This document shows positions 7,703 to 28,796 of a DNA stretch of 64,000 bases, in pieces. A program made the position numbers and the translations under genes. Each line of letters begins with the position of its first letter. Position 1 is the stretch's first letter. This DNA comes from a plasmid: assembly GCF_054482595.1 (NCBI RefSeq), contig NZ_JBTHVH010000004.1, one strand, 5' to 3'. The notes under the pieces are model-generated. The model had not been told where the DNA came from and did no database searches. It saw only the letters and a program-made list of their open reading frames with translations.

Positions 7703-8524
7703 TTACTTGTTGTGCGGCGTCGCAGACTCATTGAACAACCTTTTTGCCTGCGCAATTACAGTTCTCGGAAGCTCGATATTCAGAGGTTCTGTCACGCTCT
7801 TGAACAATTCGAGACTCCACGTCCACGTTTGATGATAGGCTGCACATAGTGCTCTTGGTTCTGCACTGCTTGTGCATGCCAGATAGCGATTATACGAGTC
7901 CTCCGAGATATCCTTTTCGAGCGCGCGTGAAGGTGTCGGCCAGTGGTCTGTTGCCCCTTCGTGGAGTCGAACCAGCTTGAGTAGGTTTTCATGTGCTTTG
8001 CTGAGCAAAGCCCAGGCGCGAGCGTACTCTCCCCGATTTAAAAGATTGGCCCCAAAGAGCATCAGGCTGATGAGGTTCAACACAAGCCCTTCCACCAGCG
8101 GCGCGCCTTCACGTATCGGGGGACCGCCCACGAGAGCGCTTGCGTACCTTGACAACTCTCCTGATCGGTCCAACAAAACAGCCGCCTCAAGCGAGGGAAA
8201 CCACCCATAGCCTTGCCAAGTGGAAATGACCGGTATGTCCGATTTTCGCATGAAATGGAATTCACCGCGAATGCCGTTTTCAAAAAGTGCGGTGTGGTGG
8301 CCGAAGTCGTCCGGAAAGTAAGCAGCAACCGGACTTACGGCATTAAGCCACGAGCGCTGATCGAAATTTTCAAAATGGTCATCCTGGATGAACACTGCGA
8401 ATTCGATATCAGAGAACTCGTCACCCTCTCCGATAGCAAATGAGCCGAACATCAATGCCGCGATTATTCGTGCATCCTCATGACAACCTTCCTTGAAGAG
8501 TTCGATCATTTTCAGTTGAAGCAT
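7703..8524 (-). CDS. lnu(F): Lincosamide nucleotidyltransferase Lnu(F), the second cassette
   Basis: 273-aa product MLQLKMIELFKEGCHEDARIIAALMFGSFAIGEGDEFSDIEF... with an aagga RBS. Confidence 0.85.
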   Translation of the reverse strand: MLQLKMIELFKEGCHEDARIIAALMFGSFAIGEGDEFSDIEFAVFIQDDHFENFDQRSWLNAVSPVAAYFPDDFGHHTALFENGIRGEFHFMRKSDIPVISTWQGYGWFPSLEAAVLLDRSGELSRYASALVGGPPIREGAPLVEGLVLNLISLMLFGANLLNRGEYARAWALLSKAHENLLKLVRLHEGATDHWPTPSRALEKDISEDSYNRYLACTSSAEPRALCAAYHQTWTWSLELFKSVTEPLNIELPRTVIAQAKRLFNESATPHNK

Positions 8525-8596
8525 AGAAATATCCTTTTATTGAAGCCACAGATTATGAGGAAAGGTATACGCAGATTTTTGTTTTTTTTCGTCAGC

Positions 8597-8655
8597 ACAA
8601 CGCCGGAGTTAAGCCGCCGCGCGTAGCGCGGTCGGCTTGAACGAATTGTTAGACA
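8597..8655 (-). other. attC of the aadA2 cassette
   Basis: gtctaacaattcgttcaagccgaccgcgctacgcgcggcggcttaactccggcgtt on the minus strand. Confidence 0.6.
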
Positions 8656-9447
8656 TTATTTGCCGATTACCTTGGTGATCTCGCCTTTCACGTAGTGGAC
8701 AAATTCTTCCAACTGATCTGCGCGCGAGGCCAAGCGATCTTCTTCTTGTCCAAGATAAGCCTGTCTAGCTTCAAGTATGACGGGCTGATACTGGGCCGGC
8801 AGGCGCTCCATTGCCCAGTCGGCAGCGACATCCTTCGGCGCGATTTTGCCGGTTACTGCGCTGTACCAAATGCGGGACAACGTAAGCACTACATTTCGCT
8901 CATCGCCAGCCCAGTCGGGCGGCGAGTTCCATAGCGTTAAGGTTTCATTTAGCGCCTCAAATAGATCCTGTTCAGGAACCGGATCAAAGAGTTCCTCCGC
9001 CGCTGGACCTACCAAGGCAACGCTATGTTCTCTTGCTTTTGTCAGCAAGATAGCCAGATCAATGTCGATCGTGGCTGGCTCGAAGATACCTGCAAGAATG
9101 TCATTGCGCTGCCATTCTCCAAATTGCAGTTCGCGCTTAGCTGGATAACGCCACGGAATGATGTCGTCGTGCACAACAATGGTGACTTCTACAGCGCGGA
9201 GAATCTCGCTCTCTCCAGGGGAAGCCGAAGTTTCCAAAAGGTCGTTGATCAAAGCTCGCCGCGTTGTTTCATCAAGCCTTACGGTCACCGTAACCAGCAA
9301 ATCAATATCGCTGTATGGCTTCAGGCCGCCATCCACTGCGGAGCCGTACAAATGCACGGCCAGCAACGTTGATTCCAGATGGCGCTCAATGACGCTTAGC
9401 ACCTCTGATAGTTGGTTCGAAATTTCGATGGTCACCGCTACCCTCAT
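8656..9447 (-). CDS. aadA2: Aminoglycoside (3'')(9) adenylyltransferase AadA2, the first cassette
   Basis: 263-aa product MRVAVTIEISNQLSEVLSVIERHLESTLLAVHLYGSAVDGGLKPYSDIDLLVTV...KVIGK. The listed 336-aa ORF reads through attI1. Confidence 0.9.
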   Translation of the reverse strand: MRVAVTIEISNQLSEVLSVIERHLESTLLAVHLYGSAVDGGLKPYSDIDLLVTVTVRLDETTRRALINDLLETSASPGESEILRAVEVTIVVHDDIIPWRYPAKRELQFGEWQRNDILAGIFEPATIDIDLAILLTKAREHSVALVGPAAEELFDPVPEQDLFEALNETLTLWNSPPDWAGDERNVVLTLSRIWYSAVTGKIAPKDVAADWAMERLPAQYQPVILEARQAYLGQEEDRLASRADQLEEFVHYVKGEITKVIGK

Positions 9448-18272: not shown

Positions 18273-18491
18273 GATCGGTGAACTGATCTTCCGTCTATGC
18301 CCTTAAATAAGTGCTGATGAACATTTTTTCACCGCATTACCGCATTTAGGTTATTGCATTTAATCTATCGCATATAGGCTATGTCGTTCATTGTGTGCCG
18401 TCACGTTTAGATTATGGTGTCAGGGTATACCCTTATGCGATAACCATTTTTGTTAAAAATAACGCATCGAATAATTTATGAGGAAAACTAT

Positions 18492-21479
18492 ATGGCAAGG
18501 AGGCAGATTCTTTCTCTGTCGGAAAGAGAATCATTACTGGCATTACCGGACGATGAGTTAACGCTGACCCGAATGGCCTATTTCAGTGAGCATGATCTGG
18601 CGCTTATCAGTGCTCACCGTAAACCCGCCAGCCGTTTTGGTTTTGCCGTCCTTCTTTGCTATCTGAAAAATGTCGGCTTTGCCCCGGATAAAAAAATCTC
18701 TCCCTCTGATGCGCTGCTGAAGCATATCGCCAGCAGGCTAAAGCTTACCGGGGATCTCTGGCCTGCTTACCTTTCCGGCCGGGATACGACCCTGCGTGAG
18801 CATTTAACCGAACTGTACCGCTATCTTGGCGTAAAGGCGTTCACCGGCAAAATACAGCAGGACTGTATTACGCACCTGTTATCGATGGCGACGCGCACCG
18901 ATAAAGGCATTCTCCTAGCCGAAGAGTTACTTGTCTATCTCCGGCAGAACAACGTGATAATCCCCGCGATTGATGTCGTGGAGCGTACCTGTGCTGAAGT
19001 CATGGCAGGCGGCGATAAAATCGTATTTCAGACCCTGAATGCCCCGTTAACTCCGGCTCACAGGGATGCCCTGGATCATTTACTTGAGTCATCAGATAAT
19101 CAGCCTTCCAGGCTGACATGGCTTCTGCAACCGCCGGGTAAAATCAATGGTAAGAACGTGCTGCAACATCTTGATCGGCTCAGCAGCATTGAATCGCTGG
19201 CATTACCTGAAGGTATAGATCGTACCATTCACCAGAACCGGTTGCTGAAACTGGCGCGGGAAGGCCGAAAGATGAGTAGCCGGGATTTGACCCGATTTTC
19301 AGCTGCCCGGCGTCATGCGATCCTGGTGTGCGTGCTGGAAGAAGCCAGAGCCACACTGACAGACGAAGTGATTGAGCTGCATGAGCGAATGCTGAATAGT
19401 CTTTTCAGCAAAGCCAAACGAACACAGGCTGAGCGCCTTCAGCAGACCGGAAAGCTGATCCAGTCAAAACTGAGGCAGTACATCGATGTCGGTCAGGCGC
19501 TGTCTGATGCCCGTGATTCCGGTGGCGATCCCTGGCTCGCAATAGAAAACATACTCCCATGGGCTGAATTTGTCGCCAGTCTGGATGAAACACGCCATCT
19601 CGCCAGAAAAAATAATTTTGACCCGCTGCATATTATTACCGAGAAATACAGCACATTACGGAAATATGCCCCACGCATGTTGTCCGCTTTACAGTTAGTC
19701 GCAACCCCGGCAGCGCAACCTCTGGCTGATGCACTGGTTGTGATCAAGGATATGTACCGGAAGCAGTCACGTAAAGTTCCGGCGGCAGCGCCGCTTGAGT
19801 TTGTCCCTGAAAGCTGGCGCAAGGTGGTGATTACACCTGTGGGTATTGACCGGCAGTACTATGAGTTTTGTGCACTCAGCGAGCTTAAGGGGGCGTTGCG
19901 CTCCGGGGATATCTGGGTTAAAGGCTCGCGCCGCTACAAAAATTTTGATGATTACCTCATACCCGAGAAGGACTTTGACAAACTCACACCGGCACTGCCA
20001 CTGCCCGTATCTGCTGATTATCATGAGTACATTACCAGCCGTATGACCCTGCTTCAGTCCAGACTTGAAGAGGTCAATGCCATGGCTGCCCTTGGTGAAC
20101 TGCCCGATGTGGAAATATCCGACAGGGGCGTAAAAGTCTCTCCGCTGGATAACTGCGTTCCGGCGCAGGTTTCACCGCTGGCAGAGCTGGTTTACAGCAT
20201 GCTACCGCGACCTAAAATCACGGAAATTCTCGATGAGGTAAACAGCTGGACGACGTTTACCCGACATTTTTCGCATATAAAAAATGACATTACCCGTCCC
20301 GATACCCGCTTGCTCCTCACCACCATTCTTGCGGATGGCATCAATCTTGGCCTGACCAAAATGGCAGAAGCCTGCCCCGGGAGCACCAAATCATCACTCG
20401 AAGATATTCAGGCATGGTACATCCGTGACGAAACCTATTCAGCCGCTCTTGCAGAGCTGGTAAATGCGCAGGGGAAAAGACCGTTGGCGGCATTTTGGGG
20501 AGACGGAACAACGTCATCATCAGATGGACAAAATTTCAGAACCGGCAGCTCAGGCCGCTACGCAGGGCAGGTTAACCCGAAATATGGGCAAGAGCCTGGA
20601 CGTCAGTTTTATACCCATATTTCGGATCAATACAGCCCGTTTTACACCTGCATAATCAGTCGGGTCAGGGATTCAACCCATGTTCTCGATGGCTTGCTGT
20701 ACCACGAAAGCGACCTGGAAATCAGGGAACATTACACCGATACCGCTGGTTTCACCGATCATGTCTTTGCCCTGATGCATCTGTTGGGATTTGCGTTCTG
20801 TCCGCGAATCAGGGATCTCCACGACAAAAAACTGTTTATCAAAGGGAAAGCAGAGAAATACCCGGCGCTTCAGTCACTGATATCAACGACCAGCCTGAAT
20901 CTGAAAGAGATCGAAATCCACTGGCGTGAAGTGCTGCGTCTGGCAACCTCGATAAAGCAGGGAACCGTGACGGCATCCCTGATGCTGAAAAAGCTTGCCA
21001 GCTATCCCAAGCAAAACGGACTTGCCAAAGCACTGAGAGAAATTGGCCGCATTGAGCGAACCCTGTTTATGCTCGACTGGTTCCGCGACCCGGCTCTGCG
21101 TCGGCGGGTACAGGCGGGGCTGAATAAAGGCGAAGCCCGTAACGCGCTGGCGCGTGCGGTATTTATGCACCGACTGGGAGAAATCAGGGACAGAAAACCG
21201 GAAAATCAGAGCTATCGCGCCAGTGGACTGACGCTGCTGACGGCTGCCATATCCCTGTGGAATACCGTCTATATGGAAAGAGCGGTCGATGCCCTGAAGC
21301 GTAAAGGGGTGAAGATCAACGAGCAACTGCTGTCGCATTTGTCGCCGTTGGGCTGGGAACACATCAATCTGACAGGTGATTATATCTGGAAAAGCAACCG
21401 GATACCGGCTTCTGGTAAGTTTCGTCGGCTAAGACCAGCTAAAGTCGAAAGGTCAAAAAACAGCCTTAACGTACAATAA
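18492..21479 (+). CDS. tnpA: Tn3-family transposase (995 aa) of an unrecognised member
   Basis: The N-terminus [19 protein letters not shown]... resembles the Tn21 subgroup, with full DDE region motifs. The gene ends inside a 38-bp IR. Confidence 0.85.
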   Translation: MARRQILSLSERESLLALPDDELTLTRMAYFSEHDLALISAHRKPASRFGFAVLLCYLKNVGFAPDKKISPSDALLKHIASRLKLTGDLWPAYLSGRDTTLREHLTELYRYLGVKAFTGKIQQDCITHLLSMATRTDKGILLAEELLVYLRQNNVIIPAIDVVERTCAEVMAGGDKIVFQTLNAPLTPAHRDALDHLLESSDNQPSRLTWLLQPPGKINGKNVLQHLDRLSSIESLALPEGIDRTIHQNRLLKLAREGRKMSSRDLTRFSAARRHAILVCVLEEARATLTDEVIELHERMLNSLFSKAKRTQAERLQQTGKLIQSKLRQYIDVGQALSDARDSGGDPWLAIENILPWAEFVASLDETRHLARKNNFDPLHIITEKYSTLRKYAPRMLSALQLVATPAAQPLADALVVIKDMYRKQSRKVPAAAPLEFVPESWRKVVITPVGIDRQYYEFCALSELKGALRSGDIWVKGSRRYKNFDDYLIPEKDFDKLTPALPLPVSADYHEYITSRMTLLQSRLEEVNAMAALGELPDVEISDRGVKVSPLDNCVPAQVSPLAELVYSMLPRPKITEILDEVNSWTTFTRHFSHIKNDITRPDTRLLLTTILADGINLGLTKMAEACPGSTKSSLEDIQAWYIRDETYSAALAELVNAQGKRPLAAFWGDGTTSSSDGQNFRTGSSGRYAGQVNPKYGQEPGRQFYTHISDQYSPFYTCIISRVRDSTHVLDGLLYHESDLEIREHYTDTAGFTDHVFALMHLLGFAFCPRIRDLHDKKLFIKGKAEKYPALQSLISTTSLNLKEIEIHWREVLRLATSIKQGTVTASLMLKKLASYPKQNGLAKALREIGRIERTLFMLDWFRDPALRRRVQAGLNKGEARNALARAVFMHRLGEIRDRKPENQSYRASGLTLLTAAISLWNTVYMERAVDALKRKGVKINEQLLSHLSPLGWEHINLTGDYIWKSNRIPASGKFRRLRPAKVERSKNSLNVQ

Positions 21480-21502
21480 TTTTCGATATCCAAACTGACC
21501 CC
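21465..21502. repeat. 38-bp Tn3-family terminal IR (outer end 21502): GGGGTCAGTTTGGATATCGAAAATTATTGTACGTTAAG
   Basis: The IR starts GGGG and ends ACGTTAAG as in the Tn3/Tn1000 group. It overlaps the tnpA stop. Confidence 0.65.
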
Positions 21503-21832
21503 GAATACAAGGACAATGCCGGTACCGCCTGATTACTTCTGGCGTCGTCTACAATGTTACTCCAGGCATATGCTGCGTCGTCCGGGGTTTGTTTTGGATC
21601 TATGTCCAATGTCGGCCAGACGTGGCCCTGATGATTCTTGCCCTTTGTACAGGAAGTGATTAAGTGTACTGAGCGTTCAGAGAACATTATCTTCCTTACA
21701 TACCCATAGAACAGCTTTCTAAGAACGGTGGGCTCGGCTGAAAATTACAAATCAGCCCCTTTCACGGCATCATTTTGATTCTTCGCGTCTGCCCCAGTAA
21801 GATGACCGGTTTTCTGCATGACAGTGTTATTC

Positions 21833-22126
21833 CTAACAAACGCAACACAAAACCACGCCAGCCAGAGCAAATTTTTTCATTTGCTGCGTAAAGAGCCTAT
21901 TGTTTTCTCTTTTAAGCTTCGCCCACTCGTTACAGAGGGTAACATCATCAAGCGCTGTTATATGCTTCGCCTCACCTTCGACGATAACGGTATGGATACC
22001 GTATGCTGTAAATCTCATACTATTTTCCAGAACCCAGTTGCGGTATTCGTCGAGTCCACCTTCGGAACCGGTAGCTCTGCGCCACATTTCAATTTGCTTG
22101 TGTGATGGGTCAAGTGTACTTGTCAT
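21833..22126 (-). CDS. Hypothetical protein (97 aa), Cys-rich C-terminus
   Basis: ORF only; ends ...ALAGVVLCCVC. Confidence 0.3.
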   Translation of the reverse strand: MTSTLDPSHKQIEMWRRATGSEGGLDEYRNWVLENSMRFTAYGIHTVIVEGEAKHITALDDVTLCNEWAKLKRENNRLFTQQMKKFALAGVVLCCVC

Positions 22127-22139
22127 TGAAGCCTCGTCT

Positions 22140-22768
22140 CAGCGATAACGCTTGAAATAGCCCGCTTTGGTCATCATGAAATTAGCCATCTGACTGGCGA
22201 TTTGATTGTATCTTACTCATAGTGCCCTACCTATAGGTTAAAAAGGGGCATTTTCGCTTTATAGCGTGTTCAGCAGCATCAATCCTCCCAAGAAAGGCTG
22301 GCTTATTAAGCCGGTCCATCATTTTCTGTATATCTCTCATCAATTTTTATATCCGCCCTGGAGTGCACCGTTCAAGCACACCGATTAGGCAGATAGTCAC
22401 TAGTTAACTCTTTACTAGTGACTAAATTCCATTGATATACGTGACAACGTCACGTCATGAAAGCTTTTAAATGCCTATTTTTCATACAATGGGATTTAAT
22501 TAGGAGTAAATCCCATAGGCTTACATAAGGATGACAATTAAAAGCGTTAAATATCAACCAGATAGAATGATTACCCCCAATTAATGGGCTCATCACATTA
22601 TTTCACTGGCTGGGGTTATTGCTGGCATATCTGAAAGTGCTAATATGTTAGTCATTAGTAATTAGTAAAGCCTTTACTAAACGCGTTTCTACGTAAATTC
22701 TATAGGTTTTATAGTGTCCTACCTTTGCTCAAATCAAAATGTTCTGACATACCAAAATGGAGTGTAAA
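22140..22768. promoter_or_regulatory. AT-rich non-coding region carrying several perfect inverted repeats
   Basis: tagtcactagt-N9-actagtgacta at 22394-22424, acgtgac-aac-gtcacgt at 22439-22455, and ttagtaaag-c-ctttactaa at 22662-22680. Confidence 0.45.
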
Positions 22769-23587
22769 ATGACTCAAAACCAGGGTTCTGAGCCAGTACC
22801 GGCGAGCCGGACAGGGCAGCTCATCAGCGCCCGGGATATGGCCATGCAGAAATTCGAAGAAGGGATGCGGTTAATCTCGGAAGCGTCGGAACTGTGCGGT
22901 CTCTCTCTCTTCACCAGCAGAATTATGCAGCCCAACGCATTTGGTCTTCCGTCGTCACTGGATCGCACCATCGAGGAGGGGCGTAAGGAAATTGACCGTA
23001 AAACGTGGAAAAGGCTCTTTGAAGAAACAGGTATGGACCGGTACTGGAACCATAAGCAAAAAGAAGCCTTTAACGAATCCCTTCGTACGGATCCGCCCGT
23101 CGCTTCCCTGGAGATTGTTAAGGGAACATTACAGCATGCACTGGCTAACAGACGAGACACCCTTGCAGAAGGTTTCGTTGATGTTCTCAACAAGCTTGAC
23201 CGAAGTTTCAAAAGCAATGCCAGGCAATATACAATGCCAAAAAAGCTTGTTCTTCGGGGGATTTTTCCTGGTGTGAACGTGCTGAGGTACAACGGTTTCT
23301 CGCAGGACAATCACTTTTGTTTACGCGACTTTGAGAATATTGTATGCATCTGTTCTGATACTCCAACACCTGCAACCGGCGGTGGGCTGAGTATGGTCGA
23401 CAGGCTGACGGCCATGAGAAATACAGAATTCACAGGCGAGGTCAGTGATGAGAATGGCTGGCGGTGTCGCCTGTTTGAGAATGGAAACGTTCATATTTGC
23501 ATCGACAGTATCTCGCTTCTGAATGCTCTGAACGATCTTATCAGCATATATTTTGCAAACCAGCTTCCGGCCGCAGGAAAAAAATGA
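22769..23587 (+). CDS. Hypothetical protein (272 aa)
   Basis: ORF with a ggagtg RBS; function not recognised. Confidence 0.5.
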   Translation: MTQNQGSEPVPASRTGQLISARDMAMQKFEEGMRLISEASELCGLSLFTSRIMQPNAFGLPSSLDRTIEEGRKEIDRKTWKRLFEETGMDRYWNHKQKEAFNESLRTDPPVASLEIVKGTLQHALANRRDTLAEGFVDVLNKLDRSFKSNARQYTMPKKLVLRGIFPGVNVLRYNGFSQDNHFCLRDFENIVCICSDTPTPATGGGLSMVDRLTAMRNTEFTGEVSDENGWRCRLFENGNVHICIDSISLLNALNDLISIYFANQLPAAGKK

Positions 23588-24789
23588 TGATTGAAAATGA
23601 TAAAGAAAAAAGCCTGAACGATGCTACCCCGCCAGAGGTGCAGAATGACATCCGCAGCGAATCCACTGAAAAATCAAAGGAAATGGGTCGTTCAAGGTAC
23701 TCATCTATCGCGATGATCGATTACTTCAATGCAATCGAACGTCTGTGCAAAGAGAAAGAAATTAACCCGGAAAATATCGATCTGAGCTTCAAAGTTCACT
23801 GGCTCAGAAACGCTGTTGGCGGCTCGTTTGCAAGGTCACAGGAGATGTTCGCGGAGTACCAGAAGTATGTTAAAGAGGTTCCTGAAGAGGCCCGTTACCT
23901 GGATATACCCGATGAGGTAAAGGTTGCACTCGGCGATATTATCTCGTACATCACCTGGCACTACCGTAGAAGCTATACCGCAATACAGAATGATAGTGTT
24001 AAAAAAGCTGAAGCACGTAGCATGCAGCTGGAGGAGGAGGTAACGCAGCTGTTACAGCGGCTTGAGCAAAGCGCTACCGATATGGATGAGCTGAAACTTG
24101 AGAATCAGGCACTACAGGGTCGATTAGAGATCCGGGACAGTACCGTCAAGGAGTTAGAAACAAGGCTGAATGTTGCCGAAGCAGAACTCGAAACCTGCCA
24201 TCACCAGTTAGATAGCACACGGCATGAATTGAGCCTCGCACAGCAGTCAAATGACTCACTCTCCCAGCAACTGGCTGAACGTAAAACAGAGATCGCTGGT
24301 CACCTTGAATATCAAAAAAAGCTGAACGAAGAGATCAACACGCAGCGTTCTGATAACGCCGGTCTTTCCAGACAATGCGACCAGTTAAGTCAGACTGTGT
24401 CAGATACAAAGGCAGAGAGGGACAGGTTTGAACAGGAATTGATTGCTGCACAGAACCTTTGTACTGAGCTGAAAAGTGCACTGTCCGGGAAAGAGGGTGA
24501 CCTGGTGGCGGTGAATGCCGAGCTTACTGAACTCCATAAACTAAACGAGTCGCTGAGCGCCGACCTGAATAAAGTAACTTTGGTCAGCCAGGGCTATGAA
24601 GCGGAAGTGGCTGAACAAAGCAATGAACTCAAAACGCTCCAGGCCAAAGTAATGAAGCTGGAAGCTACCCTGGAGGCGGAGAAAACAATCTCAGAATCCC
24701 TAAAAGGCACCATTGATACATTAACTGGTGCAATGGCAGGGGGAGGTACTGGAAAGTCAAAACAGCCGCGTAGCAGAAAAACATCATGA
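23584..24789 (+). CDS. Coiled-coil protein (401 aa). It has an N-terminal globular domain plus a long heptad-rich region and resembles KfrA or SMC proteins.
   Basis: Its start overlaps the upstream stop as ATGATGA. The region is rich in Q/E/L/K repeats: LEEEVTQLLQRLEQSATDMDELKLENQALQGRLE... Confidence 0.55.
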   Translation: MMIENDKEKSLNDATPPEVQNDIRSESTEKSKEMGRSRYSSIAMIDYFNAIERLCKEKEINPENIDLSFKVHWLRNAVGGSFARSQEMFAEYQKYVKEVPEEARYLDIPDEVKVALGDIISYITWHYRRSYTAIQNDSVKKAEARSMQLEEEVTQLLQRLEQSATDMDELKLENQALQGRLEIRDSTVKELETRLNVAEAELETCHHQLDSTRHELSLAQQSNDSLSQQLAERKTEIAGHLEYQKKLNEEINTQRSDNAGLSRQCDQLSQTVSDTKAERDRFEQELIAAQNLCTELKSALSGKEGDLVAVNAELTELHKLNESLSADLNKVTLVSQGYEAEVAEQSNELKTLQAKVMKLEATLEAEKTISESLKGTIDTLTGAMAGGGTGKSKQPRSRKTS

Positions 24790-24852
24790 TAAATGAAGCC
24801 AGGTTGATACACTTCTCTGCATCCCCTGGCACATAAGAACTTCTGCGGACAT

Positions 24853-25056
24853 TCAGCCCGTCCGCAGGAGTTTTCGTCCTTCAGTCAACAAATGCACTAC
24901 CTTTTTTGAGTCTCCACTTTCCAGAGCAGAAAACACGTTACCGATTCTACCAACAGCTTGTATCTGAGTGATAACCCCAGTCTTGTAATCATCTAGGATC
25001 CCTGACAGGAAAGCGTTCAGTTTTGTCTGTTCGCTTAGCGAAAGCATGTAGGACAT
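24853..25056 (-). CDS. Small hypothetical protein (67 aa), possibly the last gene of the dcm-like operon
   Basis: ORF starting 12 nt after the DUF1173-like stop. Confidence 0.25.
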   Translation of the reverse strand: MSYMLSLSEQTKLNAFLSGILDDYKTGVITQIQAVGRIGNVFSALESGDSKKVVHLLTEGRKLLRTG

Positions 25057-25068
25057 TTTTTCTCCATT

Positions 25069-26388
25069 TTAAGCAGGTGTGTCAGTTGAAAGAGGTTTGC
25101 GTGATTCTGGAAAATGAGGCAGCACCATAGTTTCAGATGCTGTGGTCGCATCCCAGTGCCACCATCCATAAGGCCCATATTCACGGTTGTAATAATCTTT
25201 TTTGAGTTGCTTTCGGGCCAGATAAGCAGGAGTGGCCATACCAAATACTTCCATCGGGAACGGCTTATCGCTTTTTGTGTCGAGCAGGTAGAAGTCAGGG
25301 AACACCTCACTAATACTCGCATCATAACGCATGGGCTTAACGTACTGCCGGTGCTCTGCATCCAGCTTTTCTGCAACAACCGCCTCATAGGAGGAGTCCA
25401 GAGGTATCCAGTTCTCGCTAACGTGCATCAGCACAATTTGATGAGCTCTTACAGAAGGGCCTCTGCCGGTTACCGCAGCTGGTGACGTCAACGCAAAGAC
25501 AACTATTTTCGCCCCGGATTTCCATGCTGCGTACTCCGATGAAAATCGTTTCTTTACGCTATCCCAATGGACTTCTGAATTGAAAAAAATCAGCGGTAGC
25601 CCCCCAAAATTCCGCAGGGGTAAAAATTTAAGTGGCTTCTCATGCTTTTCAGCATCGTAGCGAGGTAAAACTGACAGGAGCATGAGACGTTTATCACTCA
25701 TCGCCTGTGATGAAAGACGCTGAATTTGCGACTGAGCGACAGGTTGTTTCGGGTCAGGTACACCAATGAATAAATGGTCACCTATGCAGGCTCTGCCGGT
25801 ACGAATTTGTTTAGCGGTTTCAAGCAGACGATACCGTACCAGTGAATCGTTACGTTTCCCTGCCATTTTCGGGTACCAGACATTCAGACCAGACTCTGTC
25901 CACAAAAGACTAAGCAAGCCCAGGAGGGTCATTGAGGCCTGACCTCCTTCTGGTCGCTGAACATGGGGCAGGGGAGGCACTTCTGATTTTTCAGGAGGAT
26001 CTTTCTCTGTCATACCGATACCGAGCCTTACAGCCATATCACCTTCGGTTGTAATCCGGACCACACCACTCGCATATCCTTTCAGGCCGGTATGCCGGGC
26101 ATCAAGGGAGAAGAATACACAGGAAGGATCATGCTCAATGCCCGTGTTAGCGGCTTTGACGAGAATAAAGGCATCACCGTTCGGTAAAGCACGAACATAA
26201 AGTCGCTTTTCTCCTTTTCCACGACATCCGCAGGTGATGACTGATTTTTGACCTGAGGTGTGGTGTGCCTTTTTAAGAGCCGACTGCCACCCTTTAGCAA
26301 ACTCATCCTGCGTTTGAAAGTCAGGTGAATACCTTTTGACGTTTGGATCGTCGTCGTAAGCAATCATCACTGCGAATTTTTGGCTCAT
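25069..26388 (-). CDS. DUF1173-like protein (439 aa)
   Basis: Length and content look like the ~400-aa DUF1173 family. This is from memory and needs profile confirmation. Confidence 0.45.
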   Translation of the reverse strand: MSQKFAVMIAYDDDPNVKRYSPDFQTQDEFAKGWQSALKKAHHTSGQKSVITCGCRGKGEKRLYVRALPNGDAFILVKAANTGIEHDPSCVFFSLDARHTGLKGYASGVVRITTEGDMAVRLGIGMTEKDPPEKSEVPPLPHVQRPEGGQASMTLLGLLSLLWTESGLNVWYPKMAGKRNDSLVRYRLLETAKQIRTGRACIGDHLFIGVPDPKQPVAQSQIQRLSSQAMSDKRLMLLSVLPRYDAEKHEKPLKFLPLRNFGGLPLIFFNSEVHWDSVKKRFSSEYAAWKSGAKIVVFALTSPAAVTGRGPSVRAHQIVLMHVSENWIPLDSSYEAVVAEKLDAEHRQYVKPMRYDASISEVFPDFYLLDTKSDKPFPMEVFGMATPAYLARKQLKKDYYNREYGPYGWWHWDATTASETMVLPHFPESRKPLSTDTPA

Positions 26389-26410
26389 AGTAGTCTCCTA
26401 AACAGGAAGT

Positions 26411-26578
26411 TTAATATCCCAACCAGAGCAACACTTCCTGAGCGTCATACTGTTCCTTTACGCCCATGTCGCTAAAGAATTCTTCGAAATCTGTTTCGGG
26501 AACGCAATGCCTGGACAGTTCTTGTAATGCTCGTTCTTTAGATACCGTCTCACCTTCAGCTGATTCGAAATACGTCAT
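26411..26578 (-). CDS. Small acidic protein (55 aa) between the MTase and the DUF1173 gene
   Basis: MTYFESAEGETVSKERALQELSRHCVPETDFEEFFSDMGVKEQYDAQEVLLWLGY. It is below the ORF-track cutoff and was found by reading the sequence. Confidence 0.35.
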   Translation of the reverse strand: MTYFESAEGETVSKERALQELSRHCVPETDFEEFFSDMGVKEQYDAQEVLLWLGY

Positions 26579-26638
26579 GGTTGACCTCTGACATTATTAC
26601 AACAATCTTAAGCATTTAAATTGATGAAGGAGCTCAGG

Positions 26639-28066
26639 TCAGCTGACTTCGTCGTAAAACTGCCGCAAGCGCTGGGAGGCTGCAAATTCAATTCGTGACT
26701 TCAGCAGTTTGGCGACGGCCGCAAAGACATCAACGACCACGGAGTTCCCAAACTGTCTGTAAGCCTGTGTATTGGACACAGGGATACGGAAAACACTTTC
26801 CCCGGGTTTATCGAAGCCCATTAGCCTGCTGCATTCACGTGGCGTTAGCATGCGTGGCCGACGGTCCATGTTGTATGTGTTATGGAAATCAGTTTCTCCC
26901 AGTTCATGAGACCAGCCCCGATCAATAAGAATTTCAGATCCGTCTTTCATATAGCGGCTTGAGAGGGTTATGGTGACACTATTAACATTGGAAGGATCTA
27001 CTAGTCCAAAACCAAAACCATTGCCTTTTGCCGCATGTTTCTTTGCATAGTTGTATAAGTACTCCCAGAGTTTAGGGGAGAGGATGTATTTACTATCTAC
27101 GCTCGGATCCAGTAAATCTGAGAGAGAAGGGCGCTTGTCCGGATAAAAGTCTTTAATGTCTCTCAGAGTAAAACCGTCTTTCAGACGTAGGTCGCGGCGA
27201 AAACCAATAAGGACGATACGTTCACGGTGCTGGGGTCGGAAATGACGGCCATCGATGACTTTAGGATCATCCGCGCCCGTGCTTTCGCTGTTTGCGACGT
27301 CGTAGCCAAGCTCATCGAGCGTTTTCATGATGATGTTAAAGGTATTACCCTTATCGTGACTCTTCAGATTTTTTACGTTTTCCAGAACAAAAATTGCAGG
27401 TTGTTTTGCCCGGATGATCCTGGCCACATCAAAGAAGAGCGTACCCTGAGTGTCGCACTCGAAACCGTGTTTGCGACCCATAGAGTTCTTTTTACTGACA
27501 CCGGCGATGCTGAATGGCTGGCATGGAAATCCCGCAAGAAGAACATCATGATCCGGGATAGAGGCATCGATAAATTTGTATGCCTCGTCATCAGTAACCT
27601 CGGGCCGGTTGCTAAGAGTGATGTCACGGATGTCTGAATTGAAGCGGTGCTCGTTCTCATCGCAATACCAGTTCGCCCGGTAAGTACGGCTGGAATAAGT
27701 ATTCCATTCGCTCGTGAAAAGACATTTACCACCGATGGCATCAAATCCGCTTCGCAGTCCACCTATCCCTGCAAACAGATCGATAAAGCTAAAGTGCCTG
27801 TCCTCATAATCAGCAGGTCGTGAAGGTATTAAAGTCTGTAGATAGCGTCCATCTGCGATACTCAGCTCACAATGCTCAGGTATGCATGTAACCTGACGTT
27901 TAAGGGATGCACGGGACCAATTACTGCCATTTTCATCATTTAATACCTGAGCCAGATATTTCAGGTCATAAATGGTCGAAGCTGTTAACAAAGTTTTGTG
28001 GATCAGAGATGGTGTTTTATCCACATCATTCAGGTCTGTCTCAAGATCATGAGTGTAACGTTTCAT
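26639..28066 (-). CDS. dcm: DNA-cytosine C5-methyltransferase, Dcm family (likely CCWGG-specific)
   Basis: Carries the motifs [24 protein letters not shown] and QRER. Alignment to E. coli Dcm is near-colinear at about 70-75% identity by eye. Confidence 0.85.
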
Positions 28067-28277
28067 CCAAACTCTCTCAGGAATAATATCTTTGAGATAG
28101 ATTAACACGCTTAATTTGGATTATTTTTTGGTTCAGGTTCTAAATTTATTGTGATTATTCTGCCTTTAAGTTGCAAAAAGATTGGTTTTAAGCCCGCCCA
28201 TGAAATAATGACTTGTTAAAATACTGCCTGTAAATAGGCTTGTGGATACATGTCTGTACTCAACAAATCAAGGTGAA

Positions 28278-28796
28278 ATGATGTTTTTTTTAACAAAGTT
28301 ACTTTTGCCCATCATGATTGTTGTATTCCCAGTGGCGTCCTGGGGGAACTCAACAACTTTTGAGGCAAAGGTGGTTAAGATTGTTGACGGTGACACCATA
28401 ACTGCGTTGGATGCTCAAAACACAACCATCAAAATACGGATGTATGGTATAGACGCTCCTGAATCTAAACAGGCTTTTGGCCAAAAAGCAAAACAGGCCT
28501 TAACCACAGCTATAGCAACTAAAATCGTTACCGTGATAGACCATGGTACGGATATCTATGGCCGTATGTTAGGTACCATCTGGTTAGATGGATATGATAT
28601 CAATGCCTCTATGGTGGACAGTGGATATGCGTGGGTTTATCGGTTCGAAGATAACGCCATTGTCCCTGGCTATATCAAATATGAATCCGCAGCACAAAAG
28701 GAGGCAAAAGGGTTATGGGCAGACACCAACCCTGTCCCACCATGGCAGTGGAGACAGGCAAACGAAAAGCCCAGAAAGGTGAAAGAGAAGAAATAA
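28278..28796 (+). CDS. nuc: Secreted thermonuclease-family (SNase-like) endonuclease
   Basis: Signal peptide MMFFLTKLLLPIMIVVFPVASW. SNase motifs are VDGDT...R, YGIDAPE and GRMLG...Y. Confidence 0.7.
   Translation: MMFFLTKLLLPIMIVVFPVASWGNSTTFEAKVVKIVDGDTITALDAQNTTIKIRMYGIDAPESKQAFGQKAKQALTTAIATKIVTVIDHGTDIYGRMLGTIWLDGYDINASMVDSGYAWVYRFEDNAIVPGYIKYESAAQKEAKGLWADTNPVPPWQWRQANEKPRKVKEKK

Follow-up and report, generated by a model that had tools for sequence, protein, structure and literature searches.

A conserved two-gene unit of IncHI plasmids was analyzed within a 64,000-nucleotide stretch of plasmid DNA (RefSeq assembly GCF_054482595.1, contig NZ_JBTHVH010000004.1; this whole stretch is referred to as the window, and its first nucleotide is position 1). 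The first open reading frame (ORF1) encodes a clear member of the DUF4942 family. The second (ORF2) encodes a long coiled-coil protein which appears from sequence comparisons to be a very divergent member or analogue of the KfrA/TlpA class of plasmid proteins that current annotation has missed. By sequence identity, the window belongs to an IncHI2 plasmid and the pair to its backbone: pMS8345A and other IncHI2 plasmids match the region at 100% identity, and it has matches in 1,177 PLSDB records, mostly conjugative plasmids of 200–370 kb from Escherichia, Salmonella, and Enterobacter. We tentatively read the pair as a coupled operon in which ORF2 would be a KfrA/TlpA-type autoregulated scaffold acting on palindromes of the operon's own leader, with ORF1 as its partner and with a role in plasmid maintenance or establishment; we place this reading a little short of an even chance. 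The features concerned are listed in Table 1.

Both open reading frames are genuine genes. They are identical to the two coding sequences of the RefSeq annotation, and the ORF1 start codon is the ATG kept in the alignment with the IncHI1-like locus. The original prediction for this stretch, made from the nucleotide sequence alone, had described a 272- and a 401-codon frame overlapping at ATGATGA, and the direct reading agrees: the ORF1 stop and the ORF2 start share 4 nucleotides within this motif (23584–23590), a Shine–Dalgarno AGGA for ORF2 lies within the 3' end of ORF1 (23575–23578), and a further ATG for ORF2 is present at 23587. Measured against a 97%-identical variant, the ratio of nonsynonymous to synonymous substitution rates (dN/dS) is 0.11 for ORF1 and 0.14 for ORF2, which shows both to be under purifying selection. 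The pair is also kept together elsewhere, a point on which the proposal of a two-gene unit depended. It is syntenic in five diverged IncHI-like lineages, namely an IncHI1-like element, an IncHI1-type plasmid, a Logan contig, Enterobacter ECC445, and Photorhabdus, and in these an ORF1 relative (54–69% identity) is always followed by an ORF2 relative (28–47% identity). Among plasmid records, the ORF2 head domain occurs in 1,430 and an ORF1 relative of at least 60% identity in approximately 1,428. Word-indexed protein searches recovered only relatives of at least 50% identity, even with an alignment as query, and the scan of genome contigs returned only Enterobacterales loci with close relatives.

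This conservation also bears on whether ORF1 and ORF2 could be pieces of one frameshifted gene or decaying pseudogenes. The 4-nucleotide overlap could mark a frameshift, and other DUF4942 proteins carry a C-terminal methyltransferase extension; however, ORF2 has no methyltransferase similarity, and each gene has its own start codon and Shine–Dalgarno sequence. The junction differs among loci, with a 4-nucleotide overlap in L025, a 2-nucleotide gap in L002 and L003, and a 20-nucleotide gap in L027, the Photorhabdus locus. The two-ORF synteny in five lineages and the low dN/dS values rule this explanation out as far as sequence can show, and we assign it a negligible probability. In one IncHI1-type record (pSESen3709_1, AP020333.1; L004:8045–8899), the DUF4942 gene is annotated as two ORFs (8045–8542 and 8552–8899), which points to a disrupted gene or a sequencing error in that record; the coiled-coil gene that follows it is intact.

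The architecture originally assigned to ORF2, an N-terminal globular domain, then a long coiled coil, then a Gly-rich basic tail, is confirmed, although the coil spans approximately 245 residues (141–385) rather than approximately 280. Approximately 35 poorly conserved residues precede the head (~36–135), in which helices are predicted at residues 41–57, 67–78, and 82–98; a GGS turn separates the last two of these, and a Pro-containing linker follows the third, with a continuous helix predicted from residue 110 onward. A profile search with the head against 1.84 billion representatives returned 16 matches, approximately 8 of them full-length clusters of 384–415 residues, so that the domain is nearly an orphan. 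In the rod, a single heptad register runs nearly unbroken (score z = 7.4 versus shuffles); residues 110–394 contain no proline, and L, E, A, S, and Q are abundant. As a dimeric coil at ~0.148 nm per residue, the rod would be ~36 nm long. Its last ~25 residues (EATLxAEKTISESLKGTI) are conserved, and the C-terminal tail that follows reads AGGGTGKSKQPRSRKTS. The rod matches coiled-coil families only, including crescentin, FPP, and the SMC arm.

Such coil matches underlie the suggestion that ORF2 is an SMC-type protein or a defence effector. An SMC-like, Lamassu/Wadjet-like, or coiled-coil effector defence system would fit the weak matches of ORF2 to NCBIfam SMC (E 7e-12, 43.9 bits against a 567-bit cut-off) and to PADLOC LmuB and JetC (best E 2.4e-7), as well as the labels 'Smc' or 'ATP/GTP-binding' given to ORF2 in some database records. 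All of these matches, however, fall far short of the cut-offs and are confined to residues ~135–380, that is, to the coiled coil, and the long antiparallel-capable coiled-coil composition that ORF2 has in common with SMC, MukB, JetC, and LmuB produces weak profile matches of this kind. ORF2 lacks the Walker A, Walker B, signature motif, and hinge by which SMC, JetC, and LmuB ATPases are recognized; it has neither an ATPase head nor a nuclease domain, and its 401 residues compare with more than 600–1,400 in those proteins. The 'Smc' labels stem from the coiled coil alone, and the source of the 'ATP/GTP-binding' label is a PROSITE-type P-loop pattern, AGGGTGKS (residues 385–392; 24736–24759). 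ORF2 was rejected as a P-loop NTPase: this is its sole [AG]x4GK[ST] pattern, it falls within the disordered tail, and homologues from outside the IncHI2 clade do not have it. PADLOC returned no match for ORF1 and only coiled-coil matches for ORF2, and the pair resides on a conjugative-plasmid backbone, not in a defence island. Neither the SMC-type nor the defence-effector reading is supported, and we consider a defence system highly improbable.

The likeness to KfrA, which had been proposed alongside that to SMC proteins, fares better. The KfrA family is classed by secondary structure rather than by sequence, and KfrA represses its own expression via repeated operators in its own promoter and forms filaments on cognate DNA (PMC7783346, PMC7821693). 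Judged from its predicted structure, ORF2 falls within this structural definition of a globular head, a long coiled coil, and no ATPase (PMC7783346, PMC7821693). At the sequence level, KfrA_N (PF11740) is the only DNA-binding Pfam family that matches ORF2 family members. Membership of this family rests on an N-terminal head scoring above the gathering threshold of 26.1 bits; ORF2 of the window scores 18.6 bits (E 0.0031) and a distant member (P0053) 20.3 bits (E 0.00094), compared with 95.6 bits for R751 KfrA and 62.9 bits (E 5.6e-17) for TlpA. By score, ORF2 is therefore formally outside KfrA_N. The profile matched 2 of the 8 members of one alignment of the family (A6), over profile positions 21–113. 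When 12 ORF2 heads (A10) were aligned by hhalign with 9 diverse KfrA heads (A9), the P/E value was 0.0027 (probability 11%, 71 columns), and the motifs G..PT/INPEN, LGGGS/VGGSF, and P-x-x-V...W were paired at equal spacing; the comparison with TlpA alone gave 0.041. In addition, BLASTP aligned TlpA of pSLT with ORF2 residues 74–180 (E 0.003, 26% identity over 112 residues). The KfrA_N, KfrA hhalign, and TlpA BLASTP alignments all fall in one register, and the ORF2 and KfrA heads have in common a helix ending in G/K-x-x-P, an LR-x-x-(L/V)-GG(G)S-(F) turn, a third helix ending in W/Y, a proline ~28 residues past the GGS turn, and an invariant Trp 15–16 residues beyond it. Together, these features suggest homology to KfrA.

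Comparison with the individual proteins gives a similar picture. ORF2 resembles KfrA of the IncP-1 plasmids RK2 and R751 and the IncU plasmid RA3 in being plasmid-encoded, in its helix–GG(S) turn–helix head and Pro-containing linker, in its coiled coil of approximately 250 residues (total sizes of 342 residues for KfrA and 401 for ORF2), in having repeated or palindromic motifs before the operon, and in having an operon partner; the R751 protein also ends in a Gly-plus-basic tail (...SGGRKKT). Unlike KfrA, the ORF2 head carries the ~35-residue N-terminal extension and a 6-residue insertion before the LRN motif, its rod is Q/E/L/S-rich rather than Ala-rich, and its gene is second in the operon, after a DUF4942 gene, whereas kfrA stands first, before kfrB and kfrC. 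TlpA of the Salmonella virulence plasmid pSLT is a temperature-sensing coiled-coil autorepressor. It provides the best pairwise match to ORF2 (LRNAVGG-SFARSQEMFAEYQ...IPDEV versus LRNQVGGGNPTRLRQIWDEYQ...LPVEV), belongs to KfrA_N itself, and is similar in length and encoded on an enterobacterial plasmid; however, it is monocistronic on pSLT, and the identity is as low as noted above. ORF2 might even be a TlpA-like thermosensing repressor whose rod melts at ~25–37 °C, frees the palindromes, and so switches the DUF4942 operon and possibly other IncHI functions. We regard this as improbable; the comparison with TlpA was one of sequence similarity and gave no evidence for temperature sensing by ORF2.

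The description of the leader as dense in inverted repeats is fully supported. Its four distinct near-perfect palindromes account for 10 hairpin calls (arms of at least 7 nucleotides), whereas 1,000 dinucleotide-preserving shuffles yielded a mean of 0.79 and none reached 10. In the alignment of IncHI2 with IncHI1-like leaders, the conserved islands coincide with the palindromes. Candidate operator OP1 occurs as a single copy in the window; in IncHI1-like loci and Photorhabdus its arms are invariant while its spacers vary (AATTAGGAG, ATTCGGGG, ATTATGGG, and others), and the most distant lineage (L003) carries the variant ATGCGATATAA-N6-TTATATCGCAT, in which both arms are changed in a compensated manner. 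The core of candidate operator OP2 (TAGTAAAG-N-CTTTACTA) lies 89–107 nucleotides before the ORF1 ATG, and OP2 is found at an equal distance from the conserved ATG in L002 (CACTAGTAAAG-G-CTTTACTAGTG) and in the Photorhabdus locus. Palindrome A has the half-sites TAGTAAAG/CTTTACTA in common with OP2 and is retained, with a small deletion, in IncHI1-like leaders. Of the palindrome at 22439–22455, the core GTGAC...GTCAC is kept with a variable spacer in L002 and L013. Neither the rest of the 64-kb window nor 93 kb of pMS8345A contains further copies of the palindromes, which argues for a local rather than a global regulator. Direct repeats, ATAGTG(C/T)CCTACCT and CTATAGGTT, occur near both ends of the leader (22219–22239 and 22700–22724), one set near each of the divergent genes, and may be promoter or operator elements.

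Taken together, these observations are consistent with the following model of the pair. ORF1 and ORF2 would form one translationally coupled operon of the IncHI backbone. The ORF2 product would have a small helix-turn-helix-like head and a basic tail joined by a rod, probably a parallel dimeric coiled coil, and its dimers would bind OP1, OP2, and palindrome A in the leader. Through such binding, ORF2 would repress its own operon and, in the manner of KfrA, seed the assembly of a higher-order nucleoprotein scaffold on the plasmid. ORF1 would be produced in parallel with ORF2 and serve as its partner or cargo, and the role of the pair would be accessory, in maintenance or establishment rather than defence. 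We infer DNA binding, autoregulation, the interaction of the two proteins, and their biological role from the features described here.

Several results count against this model. Every KfrA-type similarity of ORF2 lies below accepted thresholds; the hhalign comparison with the single R751 KfrA sequence was not significant and improved only with alignments on both sides, and bona fide KfrA was found among 0 of the 16 matches in the exhaustive HMMER profile search. The AlphaFold2 model of the head, built from 8 sequences, has a pLDDT (predicted local distance difference test) of 57, too poor for a fold search. KfrA genes are typically associated with kfrB and kfrC and with partition or replication genes, and none of these lie near the pair in pMS8345A, where the neighbours are H-NS paralogue, DUF6884, DUF1173, Dcm, and SNase genes. 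A sigma-70 consensus scan of the leader detected no promoter. In the loci L007–L011 (Atlantibacter, Pseudocitrobacter, Enterobacter, and Superficieibacter), ORF1 is 99–100% identical, yet the leader is replaced by an frmR-like insertion (carrying an FrmR/RcnR-like ORF) that reaches ~55 nucleotides before the ATG; the genes are intact despite this, so the palindromes are dispensable for gene retention. An example is seen at L010:4251–5000, from Enterobacter adelaidei pECC3473_01. Finally, as single-stranded DNA, the leader folds far better than shuffled sequences on both strands (z -6.0 on the plus strand and -5.0 on the minus strand).

Some of these points would be expected if ORF2 were a nonspecific structural or tethering coil and the palindromes were used by another factor or as DNA hairpins, for example by a plasmid regulator, in H-NS/Sfh/Hha silencing of AT-rich DNA, or as a hairpin single-strand promoter or initiation signal. 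The ORF2 head cannot be assigned to a DNA-binding family at accepted thresholds, the leader is AT-rich with an H-NS paralogue 3 kb upstream, and, besides the single-stranded folding, the change of both OP1 arms in L003 fits a hairpin equally as well as a dimer-binding site. On the other hand, in three lineages the arms are invariant and the spacers free to vary, which suggests readout of the sequence and not merely base pairing, and the motifs are absent elsewhere on the plasmid stretches examined. The stems, at 7–13 bp, are short compared with Frpo-type hairpins, which are long, and the KfrA-type similarities recur in a single register. We therefore regard this explanation as doubtful, and continue to favor, tentatively, the KfrA/TlpA-type autoregulated scaffold.

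The original prediction found neither protein recognizable; for ORF1, this does not hold. ORF1 matches Pfam PF13708 (DUF4942) with E 2.7e-26 and 92.9 bits against a gathering score of 25, and residues 73–261 cover profile positions 2–187 of 190. This match makes it a clear member of DUF4942 (the YdiA/YgfB family), in stand-alone form. DUF4942 proteins are found on more than 5,000 plasmids, and the domain also forms the N-terminal half of N6-adenine methyltransferases, as in Rhizobium phage RHph_TM3_3_3 gp079 (460 residues) and the IncHI2 protein WP_032084800 (563 residues), and adjoins methylase genes in a Halomonas phage. ORF1 corresponds to the N-terminal module of these fusions (BLASTP E 5e-7 over ORF1 residues 41–268, together with the Pfam matches) but terminates where their methyltransferase domain begins, and the alignment with the fusion stops before the NPPF motif of the latter. 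Neither a methyltransferase Pfam match nor S-adenosylmethionine-binding or catalytic motifs (motif I; motif IV, NPPY/F) were found in ORF1. The AlphaFold2 model of ORF1 (pLDDT 80.8) has no analogue among solved structures, PDB sequence and profile searches gave no match for either protein, and the literature searched on DUF4942, ygfB, and IncHI with coiled-coil proteins yielded no functional study. The 563-residue IncHI2 fusion is a paralogue of ORF1 on the same backbone, with an N6-adenine methyltransferase domain fused to DUF4942 (MTS E 1.7e-5, NPPF motif; pMS8345A NZ_CP025402.1 233906–235597, L023:36907–38598); its DUF4942 part is 23% identical to ORF1. A sub-threshold Rfam Hammerhead_HH9 match on the minus strand, antisense within ORF1 (22782–22846; 22.1 bits against 52, E 0.036), was taken as chance.

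The DUF4942 family is common in plasmid leading regions, and the original prediction had proposed checking the pair for such a location. The genes adjoin oriT in the leading regions of IncF, IncI, and IncL/M plasmids; IncI ygfB, a distant DUF4942 gene, lies beside nikA/oriT with ardA, psiA/psiB, and ssb, and the pOXA-48 gene lies alongside an antirestriction gene, ssb, and hha. ORF1 resembles these leading-region proteins in length (272 residues versus 282–286), in its full-domain PF13708 match, in motifs such as the NG(N/S)xHI strand, and in its occurrence on a conjugative plasmid. It differs in being only 22–27% identical to them and in that its gene, remote from the transfer regions, is coupled to one for a coiled-coil protein, whereas the leading-region genes are solitary and stand beside oriT with ssb, psiB, and ardA. 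A leading-region location means a place among the earliest genes past oriT, in the same orientation as ssb, psiB, ardA, or further antirestriction genes (Samuel et al. 2024). In pMS8345A, none of ssb, psiB, and ardA occurs within ±20 kb of the pair, which lies at 125–127 kb; with the start of traD at 48.8 kb and the remaining transfer genes at ~189–226 kb, no transfer region comes closer to it than 60 kb, and ParAB and ParM are ~80 kb from the pair. The pair is thus outside the probable IncHI2 leading region: the idea is borne out for the DUF4942 family, though not at this locus. What looks like the leading region is a ~35-kb run of co-oriented small genes at ~9–45 kb of pMS8345A that leads toward the coupling-protein gene and encodes a site-specific DNA methyltransferase, a PAPS-reductase-family protein, HNH, DUF957, and DUF3085 proteins, and hok.

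These comparisons bear on a further explanation, in which the pair is an establishment or anti-restriction module: ORF1 would act on the modification or restriction of host or incoming DNA, for example by modulating the neighbouring Dcm-type enzyme or the DUF4942-methyltransferase paralogue of the plasmid, and ORF2 would only tether or oligomerize it. The company of ygfB and of the pOXA-48 gene, the fusion of DUF4942 to N6-adenine methyltransferases and its proximity to phage methylases, and the synteny of the Dcm methyltransferase, DUF1173, and SNase genes with the pair in 5 of the 5 lineages examined would all fit such a role. The location of the pair, the low identity of ORF1 to leading-region members, and the lack of a fold match to known antirestriction proteins or methyltransferases argue against it; no DUF4942 activity was reported in the literature searched, and the Dcm block is a separate convergent operon. 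We consider this module unlikely, while giving it appreciable weight.

Table 1. Positions in the window of the gene pair, its leader, and its downstream neighbours
Feature	Position	Strand	Details
Leader, divergent intergenic	22127–22768		642 nt, 38% GC; between truncated minus-strand gene and ORF1
Palindrome A	22394–22424		TAGTCACTAGTTAA-CTC-TTTACTAGTGACTA
Palindrome	22439–22455		ACGTGAC-AAC-GTCACGT
OP1, candidate operator	22489–22516		ATGGGATTTA-N8-TAAATCCCAT; 10-nt perfect arms
OP2, candidate operator	22648–22680		TTAGTCATTAGTAATTAGTAAAG-C-CTTTACTAA; core 22662–22680, 9-nt perfect arms
ORF1, DUF4942 gene	22769–23587	+	ATG 22769, TGA 23585–23587; 272 aa
Gene junction	23575–23590	+	AGGA, then ATGATGA; read from sequence
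ORF2, coiled-coil gene	23584–24789	+	ATG 23584, stop 24787–24789; 401 aa
ORF2 head domain, putative helix-turn-helix	23689–23988	+	aa 36–135; most conserved part of the family
ORF2 coiled-coil rod	24004–24738	+	aa ~141–385, ~245 residues
ORF2 Gly-rich basic C-terminal tail	24739–24786	+	GGGTGKSKQPRSRKTS
Terminator-like GC-rich hairpin	24843–24867		CTGCGGACGGGCTGAATGTCCGCAG; between convergent operons; scan scored minus strand
Convergent neighbour block	24853–28796		includes a 67-aa ORF
DUF1173 gene	25069–26388	-	weak PADLOC match to PDC-S68
55-aa ORF	26411–26578		phrog_25588
Dcm-type C5 methyltransferase	26639–28108	-	
SNase-family nuclease	28242–28796	+	

The immediate surroundings of the pair were also compared with pMS8345A. 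The IncHI2 backbone in the window starts at 21894, and a Tn3-family transposon (18450–21893; transposase ORF 18450–21479, 1,009 residues) meets it at 21893/21894. This transposon truncates the divergent minus-strand gene upstream of the leader, while the leader of the pair is intact. The divergent gene encodes 126 residues in pMS8345A, and a relative in pELE1-215 carries the label 'tgtA5 cluster protein 2'. Upstream in pMS8345A are genes for the H-NS paralogue, DUF6884, and HNH proteins. Downstream, the convergent neighbours are the 67-residue ORF, DUF1173, the 55-residue ORF, and the Dcm-type methyltransferase, followed by the SNase nuclease; together they may make up a modification or nuclease module with a functional link to the pair. 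Because its stem is symmetric, the terminator-like hairpin between the convergent operons could also terminate the ORF1–ORF2 transcript.

IncHI2 and IncHI1 plasmids are major carriers of mcr, extended-spectrum beta-lactamase, carbapenemase, and typhoid multidrug resistance genes, and the temperature dependence of IncHI plasmid biology is well known. More than 1,400 sequenced plasmids carry the pair, but its annotation has been limited to 'hypothetical', 'Smc', or 'ATP/GTP-binding', and the pairing of ORF1 with ORF2 and the conserved candidate operators are previously undescribed. If the pair is only a minor stability accessory, the finding is an ordinary one. As a putative divergent KfrA/TlpA-type protein with conserved candidate operators, ORF2 would be a directly testable regulator or scaffold. 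The thermosensor reading, if true, would provide a protein thermometer for IncHI plasmids and the first regulatory handle on the DUF4942 leading-region family. DUF4942 is among the largest uncharacterized families of plasmid leading regions, typically as the first gene after oriT, and ORF1 is, by its sequence, a new methyltransferase-less, partnered member of it. With a dedicated partner and a defined cis-regulatory region, ORF1 may ease the experimental route to DUF4942 function.

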